Assembly (NCBI GenBank): GCA_964016885.1
Contig: OZ024750.1
Coordinates: 28,334,001-28,398,000 of the forward strand
DNA from: Eledone cirrhosa
Taxonomy: Eukaryota
DNA: 64,000 nt
Direction of reading: 5' to 3'
In this document: one piece after another, positions 2,773 to 50,107 of the stretch
Position numbering within the stretch: position 1 is the stretch's first letter
Layout: every line of letters begins with the position of its first letter
Position numbers and translations under genes: made by a program
The notes under the pieces: generated by a model
What the model was told of the DNA's origin: nothing
Database searches by the model: none
What the model saw: only the letters and a program-made list of their open reading frames with translations

Positions 2773-3362
2773 AGGGCGGTGGATTGGCAATATCGGTAGA
2801 GGGTCGGACGCCATGCTTTGATGCATAGTGTTACGGCCCTTGCCATTCTGAGTTCAAATCCCGCCGAGGTTAACTTTGCCTTTCATCCTTACGGAGTCAA
2901 TAAAATAAAGTACCAGTAATGCACTGGGTAATTGCTGTCCTTGTGCTGAAAGTAGAAACAATTACTTTTTGTTTTAATAATATAATTGGCAGTATCAGTA
3001 GAGGGTCGGACGCCATGCTTTCCAGCATAGTTACGTCCCTTTACGATCTGAGTTCAAATCCCACCGAGGTTGACTTTGCCTTTCATCCTTACGGGGTCGA
3101 TAAAATAAAGTATCAGTAATGCACTGGGGTAATTGCTGGCCTTGTGCCTAAAGTAGAAACAATTAATTATAATATATAATATATAAAGGGCGGTGAATTG
3201 GCAGTATCGGTAGAGGGTCGGATGCCATGCTTGCCAGCAGAGTTACGCCCCTTTACGATCTGAGTTCAATTCCCGCCGAGGTTAACTTTGCCTTTCGATC
3301 AAAATAAAGTACCAGTAATGTACTGGGATAATTGCTGGCCTTGTGCCAAAAAGTAGAAACAA
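2773..3362 (+). mobile_element. Three head-to-tail family-1 SINE copies
   Basis: Copies at about 2773-2963, 2986-3163 and 3188-3362 (third has an internal deletion). Confidence 0.9.
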
Positions 3363-3371
3363 TTAATTATA

Positions 3372-3402
<31 letters not shown>

Positions 3403-3403
3403 C

Positions 3404-3835
3404 GATCAAGTGAAGGTGCTGTGGGATTTTAGGATACAGACGGACAAGAAACTGGAACACAATAGACCTGACCTGGTGGTTGTGGACAAAGAAAAAAGAT
3501 CGTGCCTGATTGTGGATGTGGCCTGCCCATTCGACACGAGAGTGCAAGAGAAGGAGAGGGAGAAAATTAACCGATACCAGGACTTAAAGTGGGAGGTAAA
3601 AAGGATTTGGAATTGCCATGAAGTCAAAGTGATCCCGATTGTCATAGGCGCACTAGGGACTATCTCAAAAAGTTTCCAGGGATGGTTAAAGAAAATTGGC
3701 CCCTTCACGCTTTTTGGAACGCTTCAAAAGGCATGCTTGCTGGGAACAGCAAGAATCCTCTGATACGTCCTAAATATCTGAGGCTGCAGGTAGTGGCTTG
3801 ATATTCATTTCAACAATCTTTCTGAAACTCAAAGA
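3404..3835 (+). mobile_element. 5'-truncated R4/Dong-clade non-LTR retrotransposon (restriction-like endonuclease, REL, end)
   Basis: ORF 3410-3763 reads LWDFRIQTDKKLEHNRPDLVVVD...IVDVACP...EKINRYQDL...PIVIGALG...LQKACLLGTARIL, with the PD-(D/E)xK REL motif. Flanked on both sides by (AAT)n. Confidence 0.9.
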
Positions 3836-4186
3836 ATAATAATAATAATATAATTTTCTATTTCAGAGCTTCTCCAGTTTGGAAGAGAGGCTGCTTGCAA
3901 GTGTATGTATATGTGAATACCAGTTCTATGAGAAGTTGTAGAAAATACACAGGTAAATAGAAACCAATATGGCCATGTGTGTGGTAGTAAAGACACATTT
4001 ACACATACAGATGGATACACACATTTATATATACTAATATACACACATGCACACATAAGTGTGTTTATATGTTAGTCTGTACGTACAGAGATTTACACAT
4101 ACACACACACACAAATTTATACATATTCATACAGATATATACACAGATTTATAATACTAATACAGATACATATATATATTTATATA

Positions 4187-4367
4187 TAACGAAGGGATTG
4201 TAGTAAGGAACCAGGTGGACCATAACGCACCAGACTACTCGATACTTTGGGTAGGAGAGTGTGTAATAGGAAAAGAGTCAAGACCCCGACGGCAGAGTTC
4301 AAGCCGTTTCGACGACTAATAGCCGTCGAAACGGCCTGAGCTCTGCCGTCGGGGTCTTGATTCTTTT

Positions 4368-4372
<5 letters not shown>
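4187..4372 (-). mobile_element. Fold-back mini-element family B (3' half of an HHR, palindromic head)
   Basis: Inverted arms ATAGGAAAAGAGTCAAGACCCCGACGGCAGAG...TTTCGACG and their reverse complement. Flanked by (TA)n. Five copies in window. Confidence 0.8.
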
Positions 4373-4422
<50 letters not shown>

Positions 4423-4945
4423 ATGTGTGTGTGTGTGTTTGTAGGTTGATGTTTAAGTGCGTTTAGAATGATGATGTTGGACGATGAATCTTCCAGTTGT
4501 TTGACCTCAGAACAGTCTGCTTATGAAATTTGCCTGCAAATGTCACAGCATTCCACCTGTAAAACAATTCTCAGGGAGATCCAGTGTGACACAGTGTGAG
4601 ACGAAGCTATCCTTTTCATTAAATATAGAACCCATGTTTTGCCGGTTGAGTAAACTGGAGCAAGGTGAAATAAAGTGTCATCTATTTTGCTCAGGGATAG
4701 AATCCGCTACCGGGACTTGAACTTAACAATAGTAAGCCAAACAGCTTAACCATTAAGTATTATGCCTTCATGTTTAGCAAGATATATATATACATATATA
4801 CATATACAACAGCATTCTCATAAACACATTTAGCAATCTGTAAATAAATAGTTTTTTTTCCCAGATGACTCTTTGTGTACACATATGTTCACTGGTCCTA
4901 CGGATAAATCATTTAATGAGACGACAAAAGGTCTCTCTCACTCTG

Positions 4946-5052
<107 letters not shown>

Positions 5053-5064
5053 CTCTCTCTCTAT

Positions 5065-5142
<78 letters not shown>

Positions 5143-5145
<3 letters not shown>

Positions 5146-7157
5146 TAGAAGTTAATATGTCCAGGGATACTAGGTACCCCTAGAAATACATAGGTTGTCT
5201 ATGATTCAAGGTTGTTCAATGGTGTTAATTTGATACACCAGAACTTTAATATTAAGATAAGCAGAACAAGTAAAATTCAATCAATTTTTCAAAATACATT
5301 AAAAAATATAATATAAATATTTACCTCTTCTAGTGGCCCTTACTGATCAGTTTCGCTTTGTAAAACCTCATAAATCCGATGGATTTATGATGGAAAACCA
5401 AAGCTCATCAGAGAAGCATTTTCCCTTCCTAGGGCTAAACGTCCCAGGAACGACAAAATATACAACCTCCTGCCAGCTAATAAAGGTCTGAAAGGTCGTA
5501 AAAGTGACCCGTATGTAAACTGGACCGAAGTAAAAGCGGGAAAATCAAAGACTTGCTGTCTACAATTACTACTAAAAAAATAGCAGCCAAGTAGAGCAAC
5601 AAATTTGTTCTCAACGGACGGAGAAAAAGGTAGAAGTTAATATGTCCAGGGATACTAGGTACCCCTAGAAATACATAGGTTGTCTATGATTCAAGGTTGT
5701 TCAATGGTGTTAATTTGATACACCAGAACTTTAATATTAAGATAAGCAGAACAAGTAAAATTCAATCAATTTTTCAAAATACATTAAAAAATATAATATA
5801 AATATTTGCCTCTTCTAGTGGCCCTTACTGATCAGTTTCGCTTTGTAAAACCTCATAAATCCGATGGATTTATGAAGGAAAACCAAAGCTCATCAGAGAA
5901 GCATTTTCCCTTCCTAGGGCTAAACGTCCCAGGAACGACAAAATATACAACCTCCTGCCAGCTAATAAAGGTCTGAAAGGTCGTAAAAGTGACCCGTATG
6001 TAAACTGGACCGAAGTAAAAGCGGGAAAATCAAAGACTTGCTGTCTACAATTACTACTAAAAAAATAGCAGCCAAGTAGAGCAACAGATTTGTTCTCAAC
6101 GGACGGAGAAAAAGGTAGAAGTTAATATGTCCAGGGATACTAGGTACCCCTAGAAATACATAGGTTGTCTATGATTCAAGGTTGTTCAATGGTGTTAATT
6201 TGATACACCAGAACTTTAATATTAAGATAAGCAGAACAAGTAAAATTCAATCAATTTTTCAAAATACATTAAAAAATATAATATAAATATTTACCTCTTC
6301 TAGTGGCCCTTACTGATCAGTTTCGCTTTGTAAAACCTCATAAATCCGATGGATTTATGATGGAAAACCAAAGCTCATCAGAGAAGCATTTTCCCTTCCT
6401 AGGGCTAAACGTCCCAGGAACGACAAAATATACAACCTCCTGCCAGCTAATAAAGGTCTGAAAGGTCGTAAAAGTGACCCGTATGTAAACTGGACCGAAG
6501 TAAAAGCGGGAAAATCAAAGACTTGCTGTCTACAATTACTACTAAAAAAATAGCAGCCAAGTAGAGCAACAGATTTGTTCTCAACGGACGGAGAAAAAGG
6601 TAGAAGTTAATATGTCCAGGGATACTAGGTACCCCTAGAAATACATAGGTTGTCTATGATTCAAGGTTGTTCAATGGTGTTAATTTGATACACCAGAACT
6701 TTAATATTAAGATAAGCAGAACAAGTAAAATTCAATCAATTTTTCAAAATACATTAAAAAATATAATATAAATATTTGCCTTTTCTAGTGGCCCTTACTG
6801 ATCAGTTTCGCTTTGTAAAACCTCATAAATCCGATGGATTTATGAAGGAAAACCAAAGCTCATCAGAGAAGCATTTTCCCTTCCTAGGGCTAAACGTCCC
6901 AGGAACGACAAAATATACAACCTCCTGCCAGCTAATAAAGGTCTGAAAGGTCGTAAAAGTGACCCGTATGTAAACTGGACCGAAGTAAAAGCGGGAAAAT
7001 CAAAGACTTGCTGTCTACAATTACTACTAAAAAAATAGCAGCCAAGTAGAGCAACAGATTTGTTCTCAACGGACGGAGAAAAAGGTAGAAGTTAATATGT
7101 CCAGGGATACTAGGTACCCCTAGAAATACATAGGTTGTCTATGATTCAAGGTTGTTC
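5143..7157 (-). repeat. 485-bp tandem array (4.15 units), one HHR per unit; retrozyme or PLE pseudo-LTR-like
   Basis: Unit starts AGGTAGAAGTTAATATG at 5143, 5628, 6113, 6598 and 7083. Units >99% identical, no ORF, flanked by (TA)n. Confidence 0.95.
5337..5415 (-). ncRNA. Type I hammerhead ribozyme, unit 1 (also 5822-5900, 6307-6385, 6792-6870)
   Basis: UUCU-CUGAUGA-GCUUUG...CAAAGC-GAAA-CUGAUCA-GUA-AGGG. Intact core, long stem II with UCAUAAAUCC/GGAUUUAUGA hairpin, palindromic stem III ACUGAUCAGU, GUA cleavage triplet. Confidence 0.85.
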
Positions 7158-7490
7158 TGCTATTTTTTTAGTAGTAATTGTAGACAGCAAGTCTTTGATT
7201 TTCCCGCTTTTACTTCGGTCCAGTTTACATACGGGTCACTTTTACGACCTTTCAGACCTTTATTAGCTGGCAGGAGGTTGTATATTTTGTCGTTCCTGGG
7301 ACGTTTAGCCCTAGGAAAGGAAAATGCTTCTCTGATGAGCTTTGGTTTTCCATCATAAATCCATCGGATTTATGAGGTTTTACAAAGCGAAACTGATCAG
7401 TAAGGGCCACTAGAAGAGGTAAATATTTATATTATATTTTTTAATGTATTTTGAAAAATTGATTGAATTTTACTTGTTCTGCTTATCTTA

Positions 7491-7494
<4 letters not shown>
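7157..7494 (+). repeat. Inverted partial copy (about 338 bp) of the 485-bp unit
   Basis: Reverse complement of about 5248-5586, joined directly to the array end. Confidence 0.95.
7328..7406 (+). ncRNA. Type I hammerhead ribozyme in the inverted copy
   Basis: CTGATGA at 7332-7338, GAAA at 7389-7392, GTA at 7400-7402. Confidence 0.85.
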
Positions 7495-7527
<33 letters not shown>

Positions 7528-7589
7528 AATCTCTCTCTCTCTATATATATATATATATTTATATATATATAAATCTCTCTCCCACCCTC

Positions 7590-7634
<45 letters not shown>

Positions 7635-7699
7635 ATATATAAATATATTATATATATATATATATATATATAAATATATTATATATATATAATATATAA

Positions 7700-7791
<92 letters not shown>

Positions 7792-8211
7792 CCCCTCCCT
7801 CCCCTGTCTCTCTATTCAGTTCCAGCCATCCATGTATCTAACCTTCACTGACTTCAACAATAATTACTCATGGCTGAATTTCATGGGAAACCACAAAATA
7901 GACTAATATGTTCTGTCTCCGACATTGATTCATTTCCTTTCTATAACTTATACCTAGACGTTCATTCCGCCTGTTGTAGACTGCGCATCAACATGAGATA
8001 TTCCTCTCAACAAAGTTCGATCACCCAGAGCAGAGTTTAAAGGGCAAAGGTCAAGTCCAGTACATAAGTAAACTACTATGAGGCTTTTAGATTTCTATAT
8101 ATGTCTTCTCTCTTAAATTGTCAAATTTTTTTTTTTTTCTTTAGCTTTGCCTGTAAATTGCTTACAACCATTGGTACTAAAATATCACAAGATCCACATA
8201 ACAGGTGCAAT

Positions 8212-8394
8212 GTGTCCGAACACGGAAGAGTCGAACTCCCACTGTCATCGCCTCCATCTCTCTCGCCCTTCCCATCTCTCTGTATTGTGAGCGAATGGGG
8301 TCCCACGTACTGGCCGCCGCACAGCCCCGGCGGACAGAATGGAATAGCTGGTTCTCCGGAGTATGGTAAGGGAGACGCGCTGGAAGAAACAGAC
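8212..8394 (+). mobile_element. Unclassified GC-rich interspersed repeat (family D)
   Basis: Diverged reverse-strand homologs at about 34245-34415 and 34780-34955. Confidence 0.6.
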
Positions 8395-8408
8395 ATTATC
8401 AACCAGCA

Positions 8409-8760
8409 GGTTAACTTTGACTTTCATCCTTCCGGGGTCGATAGAATAAAGTACCAGTAATGCACTGGGTAATTGCTGGCCTTGTGCCAACCGAGGTTAA
8501 CTTTGACTTTCATCCTTCCGGGGTCGATAGAATAAAGTACCAGTAATGCACTGGGTAATTGCCGGCCTTGTGCCAACCGAGGTTAACTTTGCTTTTCATC
8601 CTTCCGGGGTCGATAGAATAAAGTACCAGTAATGCACTGGGTAATTGCTGGCCTTGTGCCAACCGAGGTTAACTTTGCCTTTCATCCTTCCGGGGTCGAT
8701 AGAATAAAGTACCAGTAATGCACTGGGTAGTTGCTGGCCTTGTGCCAAAAAGTAGAAACA
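8409..8760 (+). mobile_element. Tetramer of the family-1 SINE 3' half (about 86-bp unit) within one TSD pair
   Basis: Units start at about 8409, 8491, 8577 and 8663. TSD ATTATCAACCAGCA at 8395-8408 and 8761-8774. Confidence 0.9.
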
Positions 8761-9089
8761 ATTATCAACCAGCATTTTGGCTGTCGACATTTGCTTCCCT
8801 TACCAACTAACTTTCCTTCGAAGCATAACTTACACCACCAGTTCATCTTTTGATATGACCATACAGTTTAAGTATTCTTGATTTGATAACTGGTGTGATT
8901 GGTTAAAGCTTTTCTATAAGTTGTATTACATTAGATAATAATTAACTCACGGATAGTGAAACAGATATCTCCACAATAGCATCACTTGGCTGACATGTAA
9001 ACTTTAATACCGTTTGATAGAACTTAATAGGGCATATACATGTAAAAACCTGCGTACATGCATACATACTTATATATGTAAGTATGTGT

Positions 9090-9101
9090 GTATGTATAAA
9101 T

Positions 9102-9197
<96 letters not shown>

Positions 9198-9342
9198 GTA
9201 TATATATGTATATATGTATATATGTATATATATATATATGTATATATGTATATATATATATGTATATATATGTATATATGTATATATGTATATATATGTA
9301 TATATGTATATATATATATGTATATATGTATATATATATATG

Positions 9343-9375
<33 letters not shown>

Positions 9376-9649
9376 GTATATATATGTATATATGTATATA
9401 TATGTATATATGTATATATGTATATATATATATGTATATATGTATATATATATATGTATATATGTATATATATATATGTATATATATATATGTATATATA
9501 TGTATATATGTATATATATGTATATATGTATATATGTATATATATATATGTATATATATATGTATATATATATGTATATATATATGTATATATATATGTA
9601 TATATATATATGTATATATATATGTATATATATATATATATTATATATA

Positions 9650-9720
<71 letters not shown>
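9090..9720. repeat. Interrupted (TA)n/(TATG)n microsatellite
   Basis: Direct inspection. Confidence 0.97.
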
Positions 9721-9721
9721 C

Positions 9722-10094
9722 ATATAACCGCTAACGAGCGAGAAACCGGCCTGTCGATTACTCCCCTTTGTTTTTACCGAGAATAATCAAGTAACATAGT
9801 CACTACTTTAAAATTCATAGCGTAATGTCTTCAAAATGTTTTTAATCCAACATACAGTAAATTGCCAAATATGCTATACATAGATTCATGTATACATCGC
9901 TATTTCAGAACACCAATACTAATAACTAATTTTTGCTGGACCGGCAACCGTCCTGTTTAATCAGCCCCTGATTATTAGTGGAATTCTATAAGAATCCAGC
10001 TTCTATAGTTCTCGGCAGAAGCGAAAGCGTGAGTAGTCTTGATAACCGCTAACGAGCAAGTCGATTACTCCCCTTTGCTTTTGCCGAGAGTGAG
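9722..10094 (+). mobile_element. 318-bp unit element with terminal direct repeat built from a decayed HHR
   Basis: ATAACCGCTAACGAGC...GTCGATTACTCCCCTTTG at 9724 and 10042. Stem I GAGTAGTC/GATTACTC, stem II CGCT/AGCG. Homolog at 42700-42830 (-) keeps CTGATGA. Confidence 0.7.
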
Positions 10095-13700: not shown

Positions 13701-15494
13701 ATGGCCGAAGCTTCTTCACCAAAATTCGAAGGAGGAAAAGGGAAGATGAACTTACAGCTTCCCCCTGCCACTGTCACAGTAGCAGAGGTCAAGAAGAAAG
13801 GTCAGCCAGAGGAAGAATTCTCTCCACCTGTTAACCAACAACTTGACGTTGCCATGGCAACAACCCAAAGAACCAGCAGCAACAGCAACAACAACAACAA
13901 TGCGACGGACGAAAACAACACCAATAACAATAAAATAACAACAACAACAAGACCAATAACGGTGACAACAACAACAATGATAACAACAACACCACCAACG
14001 ACAACAACAACACAAACAAACAAAATTTCTCCTTCGCCGAGACGACAAGGAAAACCCTCGACTATCTGCCAGTAGATATAACAAAAGCGAAGGAGCTACT
14101 GGCGGATGCGAAAAAATATATAGTGTACGGAGAAAATGGTTCATTCACAATCCATTCCCCCCCCGGAACTAAAAAGCCAGAGACTCCTAAACACGGTCAT
14201 GTTTAGGACAATCTCGAACAAAAGTAAAAAACCAGCTCAACCATCACAGAGCGAGATAGAGCTGGTTTTAAAAGACGTCATGAAGGACATCACCTTCATT
14301 CAGAAGGATAGACTCTACGGGAGTCTATCCATTCTCATGAAGGACAGGGACACAGCAGTGAAACTGTCCATCAAACCAATCACATCCACCGCATACACCT
14401 TCTACCCTACGTACATGGGTAGAAGAACACAAAAAATAAAAATCCACACCATCCTGCCGATTATGGACATATGGTGGGTTTTGACAGGTTTTCTGGACCT
14501 GGAGGATGACATGCTGGTGTCCATGGGAAAGGCATCGGGTGACGCGTTCAGTGGAACGAGCCTCGAACTTGTAGTTCAAATGAGGCCCGAAAGGATCGCC
14601 CAGATCCCTGAACGCGTCATACTGGATGATCTAACCTTCATCAACATTACCGTTGAGGGTAGACGGCCCTCGTGTTACCTCTGCGGAACCAGAGGTCACC
14701 TGAGGGCTGTCTGTCCCCAACTTAATAAGAAAACCCCAATCCTGCCTACACCACCAACAACTGCACAACCAACACAATCACCACAACTACCACTACAAAA
14801 ACAACCACCACAGCTCAAACCAAAACAAAACAATGTCCAACCCATCCCCTCCACTCAAAAAACAAAAACAATTTCCAAAACACCCGTACCGCAAACACAA
14901 CCCGAAAATATACCCCTCCCCTCCAACGCGGAAGATGACCCTAGTTCGTCGTCAGACGAGGAGGAGCACTTCCACACAACCAAAAGAAAAAAAAGAAAAC
15001 ACACCTCAGACACATAAATGAAAACAACCCCTCCCCAAAACATAACACTGACACCAACACAAAAGAGCTCACAACAACAGCAAACAAAAAACACCACACA
15101 AAAACAAAAACATGCATACACATACATAAACACAAGAAACAAAAAACTGTTAAACATTGTGTACAACAACAATCTAATAAAAACACAAGGACCTAACTTC
15201 ACCCAGGCAGGGGATTTCCCCCACCTCAAAATGATTAAGGCCCCACAGGACACCTATAAAACTTTAAAAAACAATTTTAAAGAGGACGTGGGTCCCCCCT
15301 GCGTCGGGCCCATTAACCGCGTCCTCCTAAAAAACTATCCCACTCCCTCCCCAAACACCCACACAACTCCAAGCTCCCCAACCACACAACACACTGATGC
15401 CCCCACACTTCCACAAACCACCACCCCACCCAACAACCCATCCCCCACCCTAATGGAAATTGTGCAGCCCGATACCCGGGACGCAGAGAGGTAA
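13701..15494 (+). pseudogene. LINE ORF1 (gag-like, CCHC knuckle), disrupted
   Basis: VEGRRPSCYLCGTRGHLRAVCP knuckle. Broken by apparent frameshifts (ACA-rich region and C8 run at 14157-14164) and an in-frame TAA at 15015-15017. Confidence 0.8.
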
Positions 15495-15518
15495 GTGCAT
15501 TTTCTCTTCACCACCAAC

Positions 15519-18500
15519 ATGGCTATGCTAAGAGTAGGCTGTTTAAATGCGCGTGGCCTGGGCTCAACTTGGAAGCAAGCAATGCTTCTAAATGACCTCA
15601 GGTCACAACGTATAGATGTGATGGTTATTTGCGAGGCCCGGATCAGCAACGTGCGACAGCTGGCCCCCACCTTTGATGACTTTGAGATGCACGCATCTCT
15701 CTGTCAGCCCGGAGGTGGGGGTGGAGTTGTCGTTCTGCTGCAAAAACATCTGGGTCTCGCAACACAGATGGTACATTTGGACCCGGAGGGTCGACTAGTG
15801 GTTCTGGACCTTGGCAGTGGTAAAGGCGGAGCGTTTAGGTTGGTAGCCGCCTACGGCCCTTTCGGGTCAATGCGGCCGGACTTCTTCCATCGTCTGGAGA
15901 CTTTTCTAGGGACGTCCCGCTCCTTGCTATTAGTGGGGGACTGGAATGGTATCCTAGATGCACGCTGGGACTACGTAGGGGCCTGCCCCGATAGAGAGGG
16001 GTGTAATATCCTCAAAGGGTTAATCGGTCGATTTGACCTGGCCGATAGATATCGACTAGATTTTCCGACTGCGCCAACCTGGACTTGGGCAAATCGTAGC
16101 GGATCATCTAGGTCGTACCTAGATAGGTTCTTAGTTAGAATTAAGGATAAGGACTTTTTAAGTTGTCCAAAAATGCGCATGGTTGGCTATTCAGACCACA
16201 AATTAGTGACCTGCATGGTCAACCTTGACAGAACTCATAGACAGGGCCCCGGTTACTGGAAGCTCAACTTGTCCTTGCCGGCAAGTAGAGCCTACAGGAA
16301 TCGGATTAGTACGTTAGTTAAGGAACGGTTGACGGGAGCGATCGTCAACAGCAGGTGGTGGGTATCTCTAAAGAGAGAGATTAGAGTAGTCTCGATAGAA
16401 TTTAGTAAGGTTCTAGCTGCGGATAGGAATAGGAAGGAAAGGGAGCTAATAGATAGAGTAGAAGAGGCAATTAGAAGCGGCGACGTGGCCAGAGTGCTAG
16501 CGTCGAGAACGGCTTTGAGCCAGTTTTTCGACGCGAAGCACGAAGGCTGCGTTGTCCGAAGTAAAATACGTTCTCTAGGGAACGAGGGGACCAAAGCTGT
16601 TAGCTGGGCCCGCGTGACAGAGGCCAACAGTGGAACTAAATCCACCATCCGGTCTTTGCGAGACCTGGATGGACGGGCGATTCTTGAGCCTAAGCAGATG
16701 TGTGAGGCCTTTCAAAGGCACTTTGCCCGACTGTTCGGGAGGGGCGGGGAGCCGGTTGGGAATGTGGACTTCGGTCCATACCTCGACGGCCTGCCGCGCC
16801 TCTCGGACAGGGAGGCGAAGTCCTGCGAGGAGCCGATTTCGGCCGCTGAGATAGAGGACGTGCTGAGCCAATGCGGCAAACGCAAATCCCCGGGTCTCGA
16901 TGGTCTTCCTTACGAATTATATCTAGCTATGCCGGACTTGTTCCCCGATCTCCTCGAGGCGGTCTACTGCAACTGGCAACAGAACGGGAGAATTCCCTGT
17001 ACTGTGACCAAGGGCGTAGTCACGCTAGTGAGGAAGGACGAGAACAAGGGGGACGAAATAAGTAACTTCAGGCCCATAACTCTGCTAAATACAGAGTTAC
17101 AGATTTTGGCCAAGGTGCTAGCAAAGAGGTTGGCGCTTGTCGTGGGCAACCTGGTGGGAGATGCGCAGACATGCGCTATCCCGTCCAGGTCCATCCATGA
17201 CAACCTCCACCTCATGCGATACATCATAGAGAGGGTTGGGAACGAACCCGGCTTTGGTGGGGCTCTGATCAACTTGGATCAATCTAAGGCGTTCGATAGG
17301 GTCGACCATGGTTACCTGGATGCGGTGCTAGCGGCGGCAGGCTTCGGACCCGTTTTCAGGGGCTGGATCACTGCTATGCACAGCAGCCGCATCTGCTCTA
17401 GGGTCAAGGTGAACGGCTACCTCTCGGAGCCGTTCAAAATCGCGCGGTCCATCCGACAAGGGTGCCCTCTCTCCTCCCTTCTGTATGTGTTGACTCTCGA
17501 GCCACTACTGCGGAAGTTGGAGTTGTTGCAGGGCATCCCTTTGGAACCGGGATTGCGGAAAGCGGTGTCGGCCTACGCCGACGACGTGACAGTAATGGTG
17601 TCGACGGCCTCCGAAATCGAGGCGGTCGGCACCTTACTGGAGGAGTACGAAAAGTTCACAGGGGCTAAGCTGAACCGGGACAAGTCGATCGGTTTGCAAC
17701 TCGGCACGTGGAGGGGCAGACCGATGCCCTCCGATGGCGTCGTCGGACGCTGGACGGAGGGCCCGGTGAAGTTGCTCGGGGTCTGGTTCGGACCGGACCT
17801 CCAGGTGGAGAAAAACTGGGCGGAGGTTACGAACAGGGTGTTTGCACTGACCCAGAAGTGGGCCAGTTGCAAACTATCCCTGAAAGGTCGGGCGGAGGTG
17901 GCGAACACCTACATAGCGTCCGTCATCTACTACCGCCTGACCGTAGTGCCCTGCCCAAGGGAAACCCTCACCAAGATGGAGCGCGCGCTCTTCCAATTCT
18001 TTTGGAAGAGGCGGGCTCCTATGGTGAGGAGATCCATCTGCTGTCAACACCCTTCGAAAGGAGGGCTGGGGATGCCGTGGCTAATGATGCGTAAACACGC
18101 ATTAAGGCTACGGCACCTCTACGTATTCCTCACCGGACAACCGGTGTGGGCCTCGTTTGTGAGACGAACCTTTCCCAGACTCGTCTCACTCACCGAGCTG
18201 CAATCCTGGGTCAAACAAAGACCGAGAAAACTGGGCGCCTGGCGCACTGAGTGTGCCCAGGCGCTCACCGCCCTCTGGCAGGCGGATCCGGTTATCAGTG
18301 GAGACTCCACCGCAACATTCTATAGAAGGCTGGTACGCAGCAGGTGCGACGACGCCCTCGGAGAAGCCCTAGACATGGAGGAGGACGAACTGGCCAGCCT
18401 GTTCGGTAGGACATTCAGCCCGGGACCTATGAACAACTTCCAGAAGTCCCTGGCCTGGCAGTGCTACCGAGGGGCTTTACCCGTTCGAGAAAGGCTCTAC

Positions 18501-18956
18501 AGACACGGGCGCCCGGGTAGGGACCCCGCCAAAAAGATCTGTCCCAGATGCGTGTGCGACGAGGAAACCGTTGCACACGCATTGGTACACTGCTCGGGCG
18601 TAGCCGATCTGTGGGGCTATGTCGAACAACTGCTGTCAAGGGTGGGACCGATCCGGTTGACCACCGAGTCTATTGTAATGATCAAGCCGCCTCCCCCCTT
18701 CAAAGATGAAGCAGAGGCGGTGTTTCTGTGCGTAATAGCCATGGCGAAAGAGGTTGTATGGTGGACGCGTCTGAAAGGACTGAGGTCAGGCACCTTTCTC
18801 TCTGGCCAACAACTGGTCCGTTTCTTCCGATATCATTTCGGAAGAAGGATCAGGATGGAGAGAGAGGTGCTGCACCCCAGCCGTTTCTATGAAAGATGGG
18901 TGAAAGTGGCGAGAATGGCCCGTGTGAATGGGCCTTCACTCTACATCAGACTATAG
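15519..18956 (+). CDS. LINE ORF2: APE endonuclease, reverse transcriptase and C-terminal zinc-binding domain (Tx1-like)
   Basis: APE motifs LNARGL, GDWN, YLDRF, SDH. RT motifs SPGLDGLP, FRPITLLN, LDQSKAFDRV, RQGCPLS, YADD. C-terminal CPRC...ETVAHALVHC. Uninterrupted; first ATG at 15519. Confidence 0.95.
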   Translation: MAMLRVGCLNARGLGSTWKQAMLLNDLRSQRIDVMVICEARISNVRQLAPTFDDFEMHASLCQPGGGGGVVVLLQKHLGLATQMVHLDPEGRLVVLDLGSGKGGAFRLVAAYGPFGSMRPDFFHRLETFLGTSRSLLLVGDWNGILDARWDYVGACPDREGCNILKGLIGRFDLADRYRLDFPTAPTWTWANRSGSSRSYLDRFLVRIKDKDFLSCPKMRMVGYSDHKLVTCMVNLDRTHRQGPGYWKLNLSLPASRAYRNRISTLVKERLTGAIVNSRWWVSLKREIRVVSIEFSKVLAADRNRKERELIDRVEEAIRSGDVARVLASRTALSQFFDAKHEGCVVRSKIRSLGNEGTKAVSWARVTEANSGTKSTIRSLRDLDGRAILEPKQMCEAFQRHFARLFGRGGEPVGNVDFGPYLDGLPRLSDREAKSCEEPISAAEIEDVLSQCGKRKSPGLDGLPYELYLAMPDLFPDLLEAVYCNWQQNGRIPCTVTKGVVTLVRKDENKGDEISNFRPITLLNTELQILAKVLAKRLALVVGNLVGDAQTCAIPSRSIHDNLHLMRYIIERVGNEPGFGGALINLDQSKAFDRVDHGYLDAVLAAAGFGPVFRGWITAMHSSRICSRVKVNGYLSEPFKIARSIRQGCPLSSLLYVLTLEPLLRKLELLQGIPLEPGLRKAVSAYADDVTVMVSTASEIEAVGTLLEEYEKFTGAKLNRDKSIGLQLGTWRGRPMPSDGVVGRWTEGPVKLLGVWFGPDLQVEKNWAEVTNRVFALTQKWASCKLSLKGRAEVANTYIASVIYYRLTVVPCPRETLTKMERALFQFFWKRRAPMVRRSICCQHPSKGGLGMPWLMMRKHALRLRHLYVFLTGQPVWASFVRRTFPRLVSLTELQSWVKQRPRKLGAWRTECAQALTALWQADPVISGDSTATFYRRLVRSRCDDALGEALDMEEDELASLFGRTFSPGPMNNFQKSLAWQCYRGALPVRERLYRHGRPGRDPAKKICPRCVCDEETVAHALVHCSGVADLWGYVEQLLSRVGPIRLTTESIVMIKPPPPFKDEAEAVFLCVIAMAKEVVWWTRLKGLRSGTFLSGQQLVRFFRYHFGRRIRMEREVLHPSRFYERWVKVARMARVNGPSLYIRL

Positions 18957-22537: not shown

Positions 22538-22921
<384 letters not shown>

Positions 22922-31607: not shown

Positions 31608-31637
<30 letters not shown>

Positions 31638-31641
<4 letters not shown>

Positions 31642-32060
31642 AAAAAGTATGACCCCGACGGCAGAGCTCAAGCCGTTTCGACGGCTATTTCTGGACTAAG
31701 TCCAAAAATAGCCGTCGAAGCAGCTTGAGCTCTGCCGTCGGGGTCATACTTTTTCCTATTTCCCACTCTACTACTCTAAGTATTGAGTACTCTGGTGCGT
31801 TATGGTCCATCTGGTTCCTTACCACAAATCCTTTGTTATATATATATATATATATATAGGAACGAGTAGGTCCCCGACGGCAGAGCTCAAGCCGTTTCGA
31901 CGGCTATTTCTGGACTGAAATAGTCCAGAGATAGCCGTCGAAACGGCTTGAGCTCTGCCGTCGGGTCATACATTTTCCTGTTACCCACTCTACTACCCTA
32001 AGTATTTAGTACTCAGGTGCGTTATGGTCCATCTGGTTCCTTACCACAACTCCTTCGTTA
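31638..32060 (+). mobile_element. Two adjacent fold-back family B copies (31638-31839, 31857-32060)
   Basis: Each has GACCCCGACGGC...TTTCGACGGCTA-loop-TAGCCGTCGAA... plus the common 3' tail, separated by (TA)n. Confidence 0.85.
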
Positions 32061-32142
32061 TATATATATATATACATGTGAATGATAGATGTACATATGT
32101 GTATATGTATGTAGTATGTATGCATGTATGTGCGTATATATG

Positions 32143-42433: not shown

Positions 42434-42784
42434 CAGGTAAAAGAACAACAACAACAACAACAAAACAAAGATTACCAGGTAACTTTTACTTTTCGTTACC
42501 TCATCTTACAGACCACTTTGCATTCTTTGGCCTTCTATCTTTTCAAACGTTAACTTTGCCTTTCATCCTTACGGGATCGATAAAATAAAGTACCAGTAAT
42601 TTACTGGGTTATTGCTGGCCTTGTGCCAAAAGTAGAAACAGTTATATATATATATATGAATGTATGTATAGTATATTTGGCAATATACCGTATTTTTAAT
42701 TAAAAAGATTTAGAAGACCATATGCTATCAGTTTTAAAGTAGTGACTATGTCACTCACTTCTTTTCGGCGAAAGAAGGGAGAGA

Positions 42785-42826
42785 AGCTGATAGTCTGTTT
42801 CACGCTGGTTGGCGTTCATCAGAGCC
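42785..42826 (-). ncRNA. Minimal hammerhead-like motif (homolog of the 9722-10094 element)
   Basis: GGCT-CTGATGA-ACGC caacca GCGT-GAAA-CAGACT-ATC-AGCT, followed by GACATAGTCACTACTTTAAAA shared with about 9795-9812. Confidence 0.7.
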
Positions 42827-42828
42827 AC

Positions 42829-42882
<54 letters not shown>

Positions 42883-49786: not shown

Positions 49787-49985
49787 AGCCCGCCGAGGTT
49801 AACTTTGCCTTTCATCCTTACGGGGTCGATAAAATAAAGTACCAGTAATACACTGTTAATTGCTGGCCTTGTGCTAAAAGTAGAAACAATTATTATTAAG
49901 CACTTACGGGGTCGCGGGGTCGATAAAATAAAGTACCAGTAATGCACTGGGTAATTGCTGGCCTTGTGCCTAAAGTAGAAACAAT
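49787..49985 (+). mobile_element. Two truncated family-1 SINE 3' ends with repeated flank
   Basis: ATTATTATTAAGC(ACTTA) occurs before, between and after the two pieces. Confidence 0.8.
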
Positions 49986-50107
49986 TATTATTAAGCACTT
50001 AAAACCTAATGGAATTTTAGGACGCCAGCTTTAGAAACACATCAATTCTTAGTCGTTTGAATATTGTTTCATCACAGCCGACTTTTTCCAGGAGAGAGAG
50101 AACGAAA

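Follow-up and report, generated by a model that had tools for sequence, protein, structure and literature searches.

A dispersed non-coding hammerhead repeat in (TA)n microsatellites of Eledone cirrhosa with an insertion pattern resembling that of Penelope-like elements

The insertion described here lies on contig OZ024750.1 of Eledone cirrhosa (assembly GCA_964016885.1), within a stretch of 64,000 nucleotides (positions 28,334,001 to 28,398,000, forward strand) that we call the window. A 485-bp unit is present in 4.15–4.2 tandem copies (window positions 5143–7157, 99% matches), which differ from one another at one to four bases, and is followed by an inverted partial unit (7157–7494, unit positions 444 to 107) that is 99.7% identical. 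The outer ends of the insertion abut (TA)n on both sides. Two private variants are common to units 2 and 4, giving a period-2 pattern. The longest stop-free frame in the tandem is 83 codons, and the longest ATG frame encodes 34 aa. An earlier sequence-only reading had described 4.15 near-identical, non-coding units within (TA)n, which our analysis bore out, and had taken all of 5143–7494 as a tandem array, a description that holds as far as 7157 and fails beyond it, where the inverted piece of the unit carries a fifth hammerhead. An MIR9563-like Rfam match at 6996–7202 was rejected, as it represents the hairpin of the inversion junction and falls below the gathering score. RAD-seq pile-ups at 5227, 5277, 5564, and 5715 resemble restriction-library ends and were disregarded.

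Table. Features of the insertion and its flanks, in window coordinates.
Feature	Position	Strand	Comment
(TA)n-rich target microsatellite, left flank	4976..5142	.	
Fixed end B, unit positions 1-6	5143..5148	-	putative reverse-transcription start; ~195 nt 3' of ribozyme cut on RNA
485-bp unit 1	5143..5627	-	RNA sense = minus strand
Tail hairpin 2	5155..5189	-	just 5' of site B on RNA; positions transferred from unit 3
Tail hairpin 1	5214..5244	-	just 3' of site A on RNA; positions transferred from unit 3
Type I hammerhead 1	5336..5417	-	predicted cut 5341/5340
485-bp unit 2	5628..6112	-	
Type I hammerhead 2	5821..5902	-	predicted cut 5826/5825
485-bp unit 3	6113..6597	-	
Type I hammerhead 3	6306..6387	-	predicted cut 6311/6310
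485-bp unit 4	6598..7082	-	
Type I hammerhead 4	6791..6872	-	predicted cut 6796/6795
Partial fifth unit, positions 1-75	7083..7157	-	variable 5' end of long arm; 1 base shared at junction with inverted arm
Inverted arm, unit positions 444 to 107	7157..7494	+	RNA sense = plus strand
Type I hammerhead 5, inverted arm	7326..7407	+	predicted cut 7402/7403
Fixed end A, unit positions 107-110	7491..7494	+	putative main reverse-transcription start; 92 nt 3' of cut; 4 bases shared with TA run
(TA)n-rich target microsatellite, right flank	7495..7788	.	

Elsewhere in the window, an intact-looking LINE ORF2 of 1153 aa (AP endonuclease, RT, and zf-RVT) occupies 15495–18956 on the plus strand, preceded at 14124–15494 by frames without Pfam matches, and a fragment of an endonuclease/RT frame (Exo_endo_phos_2) lies at 60309–61022 on the minus strand. 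Tandem copies of repeat pieces, whose source we take to be SINE-like, occur at 8408–8748 (86 bp), 2779–3385 (200 bp), 54370–54748 (193 bp), and 49821–50001 (95 bp). At 240–760, and also at loci L094, L107, and L199, two repeats flank a TA run and each contains a CUGANGA...GAAA motif. A hammerhead-like core (CUGAUGA, 4-bp stem, GAAA) adjoins a TA run at 42760–42830 on the minus strand; its stems I and III fail the descriptor used below.

The 485-bp unit is not confined to this locus. A search of the same genome gave 1,987 first-look candidates, among which 39 loci on many contigs were scored, with full units 98–100% identical across loci, and an exact ribozyme-core pattern matched 552 times genome-wide (reversed-pattern control, 0). 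We read both ends of the 39 scored loci and of the first 30 pattern matches, all 30 of which are on one contig; removal of seven overlapping or already counted loci and four segmental duplicates (L044, L054, L049, and L116) left 58 distinct loci. The single-locus alternative raised in the sequence-only reading is thereby excluded, and the young, dispersed, non-coding, hammerhead-bearing tandem family that it proposed is supported. At neither end of these 58 loci did the units continue into coding sequence; they abut microsatellite or unrelated flank, with no LTR. Arrays reach about 16 copies, with the unit closing on itself, and a simple consensus found no Pol III A or B boxes in the unit. Some insertions are duplicated together with their flanks 3–200 kb apart (L043, L044, and L054; L048 and L049; L115 and L116), as segmental or assembly duplicates.

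At least three sister families retain homology over the whole unit, each with its own period. One, of 467 bp, is ~70% identical to the 485-bp family over the region from the ribozyme to end B, and another, of 525 bp, is 74% identical over the whole unit and is represented by 487 cores; the lead to the latter came from short pieces in Logan contigs of four runs under other labels. A looser long-stem ribozyme pattern matched 3,304 times (control, 25), and the 20 variants sampled from it were mostly homologous non-coding units, with a few unrelated or chance matches.

Every ribozyme copy in the window is intact (five of five type I motifs), four on the minus strand and one, with H17 at 7402, on the plus strand. 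In the minus-strand copies H17 fell at 5341, 5826, 6311, and 6796, in exact agreement with the cut sites claimed before. CUGANGA and GAAA cores, a UH site, and three helices with stem I open identify the motif as a type I hammerhead. A generic type I descriptor found no match in 20,000 dinucleotide shuffles of the 485-bp unit, both strands searched; the hammerhead is not a chance occurrence. Stem II is 50 nt long, as estimated earlier, and comprises a conserved pyrimidine internal loop and an inner hairpin. This inner hairpin, previously described as a perfect 10-bp helix, is perfect in units 1 and 3 and carries in units 2 and 4 a wobble/mismatch variant of one A-U pair. The remaining geometry required amendment: a perfect palindrome of 10 nt forms stem III and closes on a loop of 2 nt, and one reading of stem I gives 5 bp and a single bulge. 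A type III reading from an upstream hairpin was dropped by eye, as that hairpin has no stem III partner. The Rfam scan suggested as a check failed to recover the motif: the 35 matches obtained for window positions 3000–10000 (E≤1) include no hammerhead family, probably because stem II is so long.

Several comparisons suggest that the ribozyme is under selection: the core is intact across families only 70–74% identical, the stem III palindromes are maintained, and paired positions covary. First, in an alignment of 16 copies from two families, 93.9% of cells were paired and the covariation score was 0.157, compared with 0.075 for shuffled and at most 0.059 for slid alignments, although relatedness of the aligned copies inflates these figures. 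Only five pairs changed on both sides, a number reached by 114 of 500 shuffles. Because alignment A1 placed the sister family off by one column at stem III, pair counts were taken on alignment A2 with the sister family excluded. Second, 174 of 183 motif copies have a perfectly palindromic stem III, in four 10-nt and two odd, 9-nt versions. In one version the central two bases are swapped, such that pairing is possible only between two ribozymes, which fits the dimeric hammerhead described in PMC4209133. Members of the 525-bp family often show a mismatched first pair in stem II together with a GUU site.

The predicted active fold of the monomer lies ~10 kcal/mol above the MFE and the stem III duplex is worth –13.6; with its palindromic stem III, a lone ribozyme copy would thus probably cleave poorly. 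We consider it likely that the ribozyme is active at least as a dimer. In the experiments reported in 10.64898/2026.07.22.740005, eight of nine Xenopus retrozyme dimers did not cleave.

The ends of the insertions follow a strict grammar. Each arm has one end at a fixed phase beside (TA)n and one free end. Among 82 arm heads in the 58 loci, 53 are at end A (unit positions 105–108), 27 at end B (positions 1–6), and 2 elsewhere. Single-arm loci (n=34) mostly begin at A (29, with 4 at B and 1 other), and inverted loci pair an A arm with a B arm in 23 of 24 cases, with no A+A and no B+B combination (binomial p=1.5e-6 against free choice). The exception to A+B pairing is L040 (A plus an unclassed end). 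Both ends are downstream of the cut when read on the ribozyme strand, A at a distance of 92 nt and B at about 195 nt, and the tail between them measures 101–106 nt. Of the earlier expectation that copies would be dispersed with differing start phases, dispersal held; the start phases are fixed. In independent runs that bear the same species label, loose ends in TA occur at the A phase (two runs) and at the B phase (one run), so the fixed ends are not an assembly artefact. Target-site duplications are indiscernible within (TA)n.

The same organization recurs in the sister families, with A+B pairing in 10 of 11 inverted loci and a 100-nt tail in the 467-bp family, and pairing in 7 of 8 inverted loci and a tail of about 100–110 nt in the 525-bp family; the exceptions are L163 and L215. 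In the 485-bp family the 100-nt A–B stretch folds into two hairpins. Both are conserved across 14 copies representing several subfamilies, and of their 23 pairs, 5 show changes on both sides, including 4 of the 13 in hairpin 2.

Two further groups of repeats also have fixed ends. In a more distant long-stem hammerhead family (L229–L233 and L254), with a different stem III palindrome and a ~520-bp period in L233, the distance from the cut to a fixed end is only about 55 nt. A separate family inserted in (TA)n, its copies 77–92% identical, is found in the window at 4186–4372, 22575–22810, 31637–32061, and 53641–53822; it has two fixed heads 80 nt apart, head-to-head inverted copies, and the same tail grammar, and the type I descriptor found no canonical hammerhead in it.

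Penelope-like elements (PLEs) provide a precedent for such ends. As described in PMC8557442 and PMC3846280, PLE insertions are tandem and inverted and carry a 30–40-bp tail at one end only. In vitro, AT-rich DNA is cut by purified Anolis PLE protein on both strands, which are then extended; reverse transcription begins at two sites within the RNA, both downstream of its hammerhead, and the gap between these sites corresponds to the tail (PMC11167929). According to the same account, uncut RNA is the main substrate, the ribozyme is dispensable for insertion and requires the protein, and the start sites are the same on both strands. The two fixed ends of the 485-bp family match the PLE tail signature and likely mark copying by a PLE enzyme, and PLE-type mobilisation of the family is, in our assessment, very probable. 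The sequence-only reading had proposed mobilisation in trans by a PLE, which the lack of an attached PLE ORF at the 58 loci and the presence of a PLE insertion footprint support well, if indirectly.

The genome is rich in PLEs (10,597 first-look GIY-YIG candidates), and one coding family provides an internal comparison. Its member at L090 (2276–5778) encodes RT followed by GIY-YIG and has a minimal hammerhead (UUGAAAA where CUGANGA would be expected), (TA)n ends, and a 65-nt tail; its CX4CxxC linker suggests the Neptune type. Among 30 loci fetched with a query that favoured those bearing the outer end, 14 of 14 inverted loci pair both ends. Short copies of this family, which is represented at L090 and L169–L198, mostly stop 200–219 nt from the outer end. 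They are often near-perfect palindromes with both arms ending at one place, a pattern that points to copying, from both start sites, of a short linear RNA whose 5' end is fixed.

What form of RNA was copied in the 485-bp family? Three observations favour a circular monomer. First, the units of an array agree in their subfamily variant in 69 of 70 array-by-site cases (15 diagnostic sites, selected after inspection of the data), with the one exception beside an indel; the two arms agree in all nine informative inverted loci (18 tested), and in L053, L037, and L048 private variants recur in every unit and on both arms. Mixing within arrays is seen for six other shared variants, most of them at CpG or homopolymer sites. 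Second, 82 free ends fit a uniform spread over the unit (KS p=0.26, with one value corrected by hand where a neighbouring sister-family match had been merged), and only 2 of the 82 fall within 2 nt of the cut; in the coding PLE sample, 30 of 44 arm ends pile up at 200–219, a figure possibly biased by selection with a 219-nt query. Third, 160 segments crossing the cut site contain two substitutions and no indels, which counts against jumping between cut monomers. With few ends at the cut and no junction indels, neither a linear monomer template nor jumping between cut monomers is supported. The circular fold of the unit is also unusually stable (z=–6.2 versus 60 shuffles). Taken from the genomic copies, the uniform arrays and scar-free cut site favour a circular monomer, and we think this was probably the usual template.

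The principal competitor is an uncut, linear read-through multimer, used as the template of a non-autonomous PLE parasite in which the ribozyme is weak or merely trims, local duplication restores array length, and no circle is needed. This account draws on the Anolis results, in which the PLE mainly used uncut RNA and ribozyme mutants inserted normally (PMC11167929), and on the weak ribozyme fold of the monomer. It also draws on array growth at the DNA level: L033 and L042 contain period-3 and period-4 variant blocks, and their arrays grew by later local block duplication, whereas the period-2 pattern in the window could reflect either a dimer template or a 970-bp duplication. Array length alone is therefore no proof of rolling-circle copying. 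A linear multimer would, however, transmit mixed, unit-specific variants, contrary to the uniformity of the diagnostic variants and to the private variants that run through every unit and both arms of the three loci named above, and compensating changes preserve the palindromic stem III. We regard this alternative as possible without being probable.

A second alternative concerns the inverted form only and is compatible with either template. Here a single cDNA would fold back or prime itself to make the inverted arm, and an endonuclease cut at a fixed site would create the second end. There are published proposals of both kinds, with inverted PLE junctions attributed to self-priming (PMC3846280) and the tail to endonuclease resolution (PMC8557442), and a single haplotype common to both arms is what fold-back predicts. 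In L115, L123, and L132, however, neither arm contains the other, an arrangement that fold-back cannot yield unless the centre of the palindrome was later deleted, and with purified PLE protein both strands of the target are extended, starting from two sites on the RNA (PMC11167929). Fold-back thus appears unlikely, and we have fair confidence that inverted insertions reflect two primings on one RNA lineage.

A third alternative is that the unit is a pseudo-LTR or truncated end of an unsampled autonomous PLE and that the arrays are by-products of its transposition. The insertion grammar does match that of coding PLEs, PLE terminal repeats bear type I hammerheads (PMC4209133), and only 60 of the 10,597 GIY-YIG candidates were examined; within those 60, drawn from 150 listed loci, blastn found no match of the unit to PLE sequence. 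Against this origin, none of the 58 family loci and none of 20 loci with related ribozyme variants runs into a PLE ORF, the unit closes on itself in the longest arrays, the sister families keep whole-unit homology and periods of their own, and the coding PLEs encountered have minimal ribozymes and 3' ends unrelated to the 485-bp unit. Where retrozyme copies lie near PLE ORFs (L090 and L256, the latter in opposite sense), they are separate insertions across a microsatellite. We consider a pseudo-LTR origin quite improbable. Finally, RNA-free spread as a satellite or DNA-based element (MITE or Helitron-like) with a passenger ribozyme could draw on the local duplications and on the terminal inverted repeats created by inverted copies, and is largely refuted, and scarcely credible, given the one-sided polarity of the ends (fixed downstream of the ribozyme, free upstream), inverted arms unequal in start and length, and RNA covariation in both ribozyme and tail.

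We lean slightly toward the following overall model: a dispersed non-coding hammerhead repeat whose RNA is cut, circularised, and copied into TA microsatellites by a borrowed PLE enzyme with RT and GIY-YIG activities. Its starting point is the observed set of tandem and inverted copies in (TA)n at many loci, with ends A and B fixed and the others free. Minus-strand read-through transcription of such arrays would generate multimers, in which pairing between the palindromic stems III of adjacent ribozymes may form a double hammerhead that cuts the RNA; by analogy with other animal retrozymes, a host ligase might then close the 485-nt monomers. A PLE protein would bind the structured 100-nt tail and cut both strands of (TA)n. 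Priming of one end would usually occur at A, the start seen in 29 of 33 classed single-arm insertions; roughly four insertions in ten would have a second priming, at B, on the other end. Each reverse transcriptase could circuit the template for a variable length, and in most cases the two cDNAs would join over 0–8 shared bases to give the head-to-head form. At some loci, arrays were later lengthened by local block duplication.

More speculatively, a PLE dimer might sit asymmetrically on one RNA circle, its subunits starting at A and B across the two-hairpin 100-nt tail and each rolling round, in a radiation of circular-RNA parasites that would take in the more than 3,000 long-stem hammerheads of this genome. 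If so, the genome would preserve a footprint, the first direct one, of a retrozyme being copied by rolling-circle, target-primed reverse transcription, and the conserved internal loop of stem II would be a protein- or dimer-dependent ribozyme switch. With 98–100% identity across loci, the 485-bp family could serve directly as a substrate in the in vitro PLE assay already available.

Judged by genomic criteria, the 485-bp family is an animal non-LTR retrozyme that appears to behave like a non-autonomous PLE. Like the animal non-LTR retrozymes described in PMC7229834 and 10.64898/2026.07.22.740005, it consists of tandem, non-coding units that each bear a single type I hammerhead, has low GC, a predicted structured circular fold, and dispersed monomers to multimers, and co-occurs with PLEs; the comparison is one of genomic sequence. 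The element class itself is known, and the unit length, which the sequence-only reading had considered long for such elements, is ordinary, as the animal units reported in 10.64898/2026.07.22.740005 span 51–972 bp. In contrast to those retrozymes as described, the 485-bp family has a stem II of 50 nt rather than the canonical 4 bp or so and is missed by Rfam; it also targets (TA)n, has two fixed ends, and forms inverted insertions that pair A with B. No pLTR homologue of the unit turned up among the 60 GIY-YIG loci examined. With EN+ PLEs (PMC8557442, PMC3846280) it shares tandem and head-to-head inverted copies, a tail at one end, microsatellite targeting, and a hammerhead upstream of the fixed end; unlike them as described, it has no ORF, no fixed 5' end, a tail of 101–106 rather than 30–40 nt, and whole-unit arrays of up to about 16 copies.

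Among individual PLEs, Anolis Poseidon PAc (PMC11167929) resembles the 485-bp family in having two start sites downstream of the hammerhead, an AT-rich target, and cuts in both strands. The distance from the cut to the first start is 85–92 nt for Poseidon PAc, by subtraction from the figures given there, and 92 nt here. Poseidon PAc has a coding RNA and is reported to show no strand difference in start, whereas copies of the 485-bp family almost always pair A with B. Palindromic helix III pairing between tandem copies and a short helix I are shared with the dimeric hammerheads of newt and axolotl satellites and the minimal hammerheads of PLEs (PMC4209133), although helix II is far longer than the 7–8 bp of the minimal PLE motifs and the core is fully canonical. 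Chlamys MRC1-type elements (PMC8557442) are likewise non-coding PLE derivatives with multicopy head-to-tail insertions. Their 3' end resembles that of an autonomous partner and their clade was reported without canonical hammerheads, whereas the 485-bp family has a canonical core and no partner among the 60 GIY-YIG loci examined.

Searches of open-access main texts found no description of the 485-bp family or of a retrozyme tail. Relative to that literature as available, the new elements are the long stem II class, a large group of hammerheads undetected by Rfam; the structured 100-nt tail; and a footprint tying a retrozyme to two-site initiation by PLEs. Both PLE mobilisation of animal retrozymes and circular templates are published hypotheses, based on co-occurrence and pLTR similarity, to which the 485-bp family adds a footprint at the level of individual insertions: fixed A and B starts, A+B pairing, a (TA)n target, and one haplotype per insertion.
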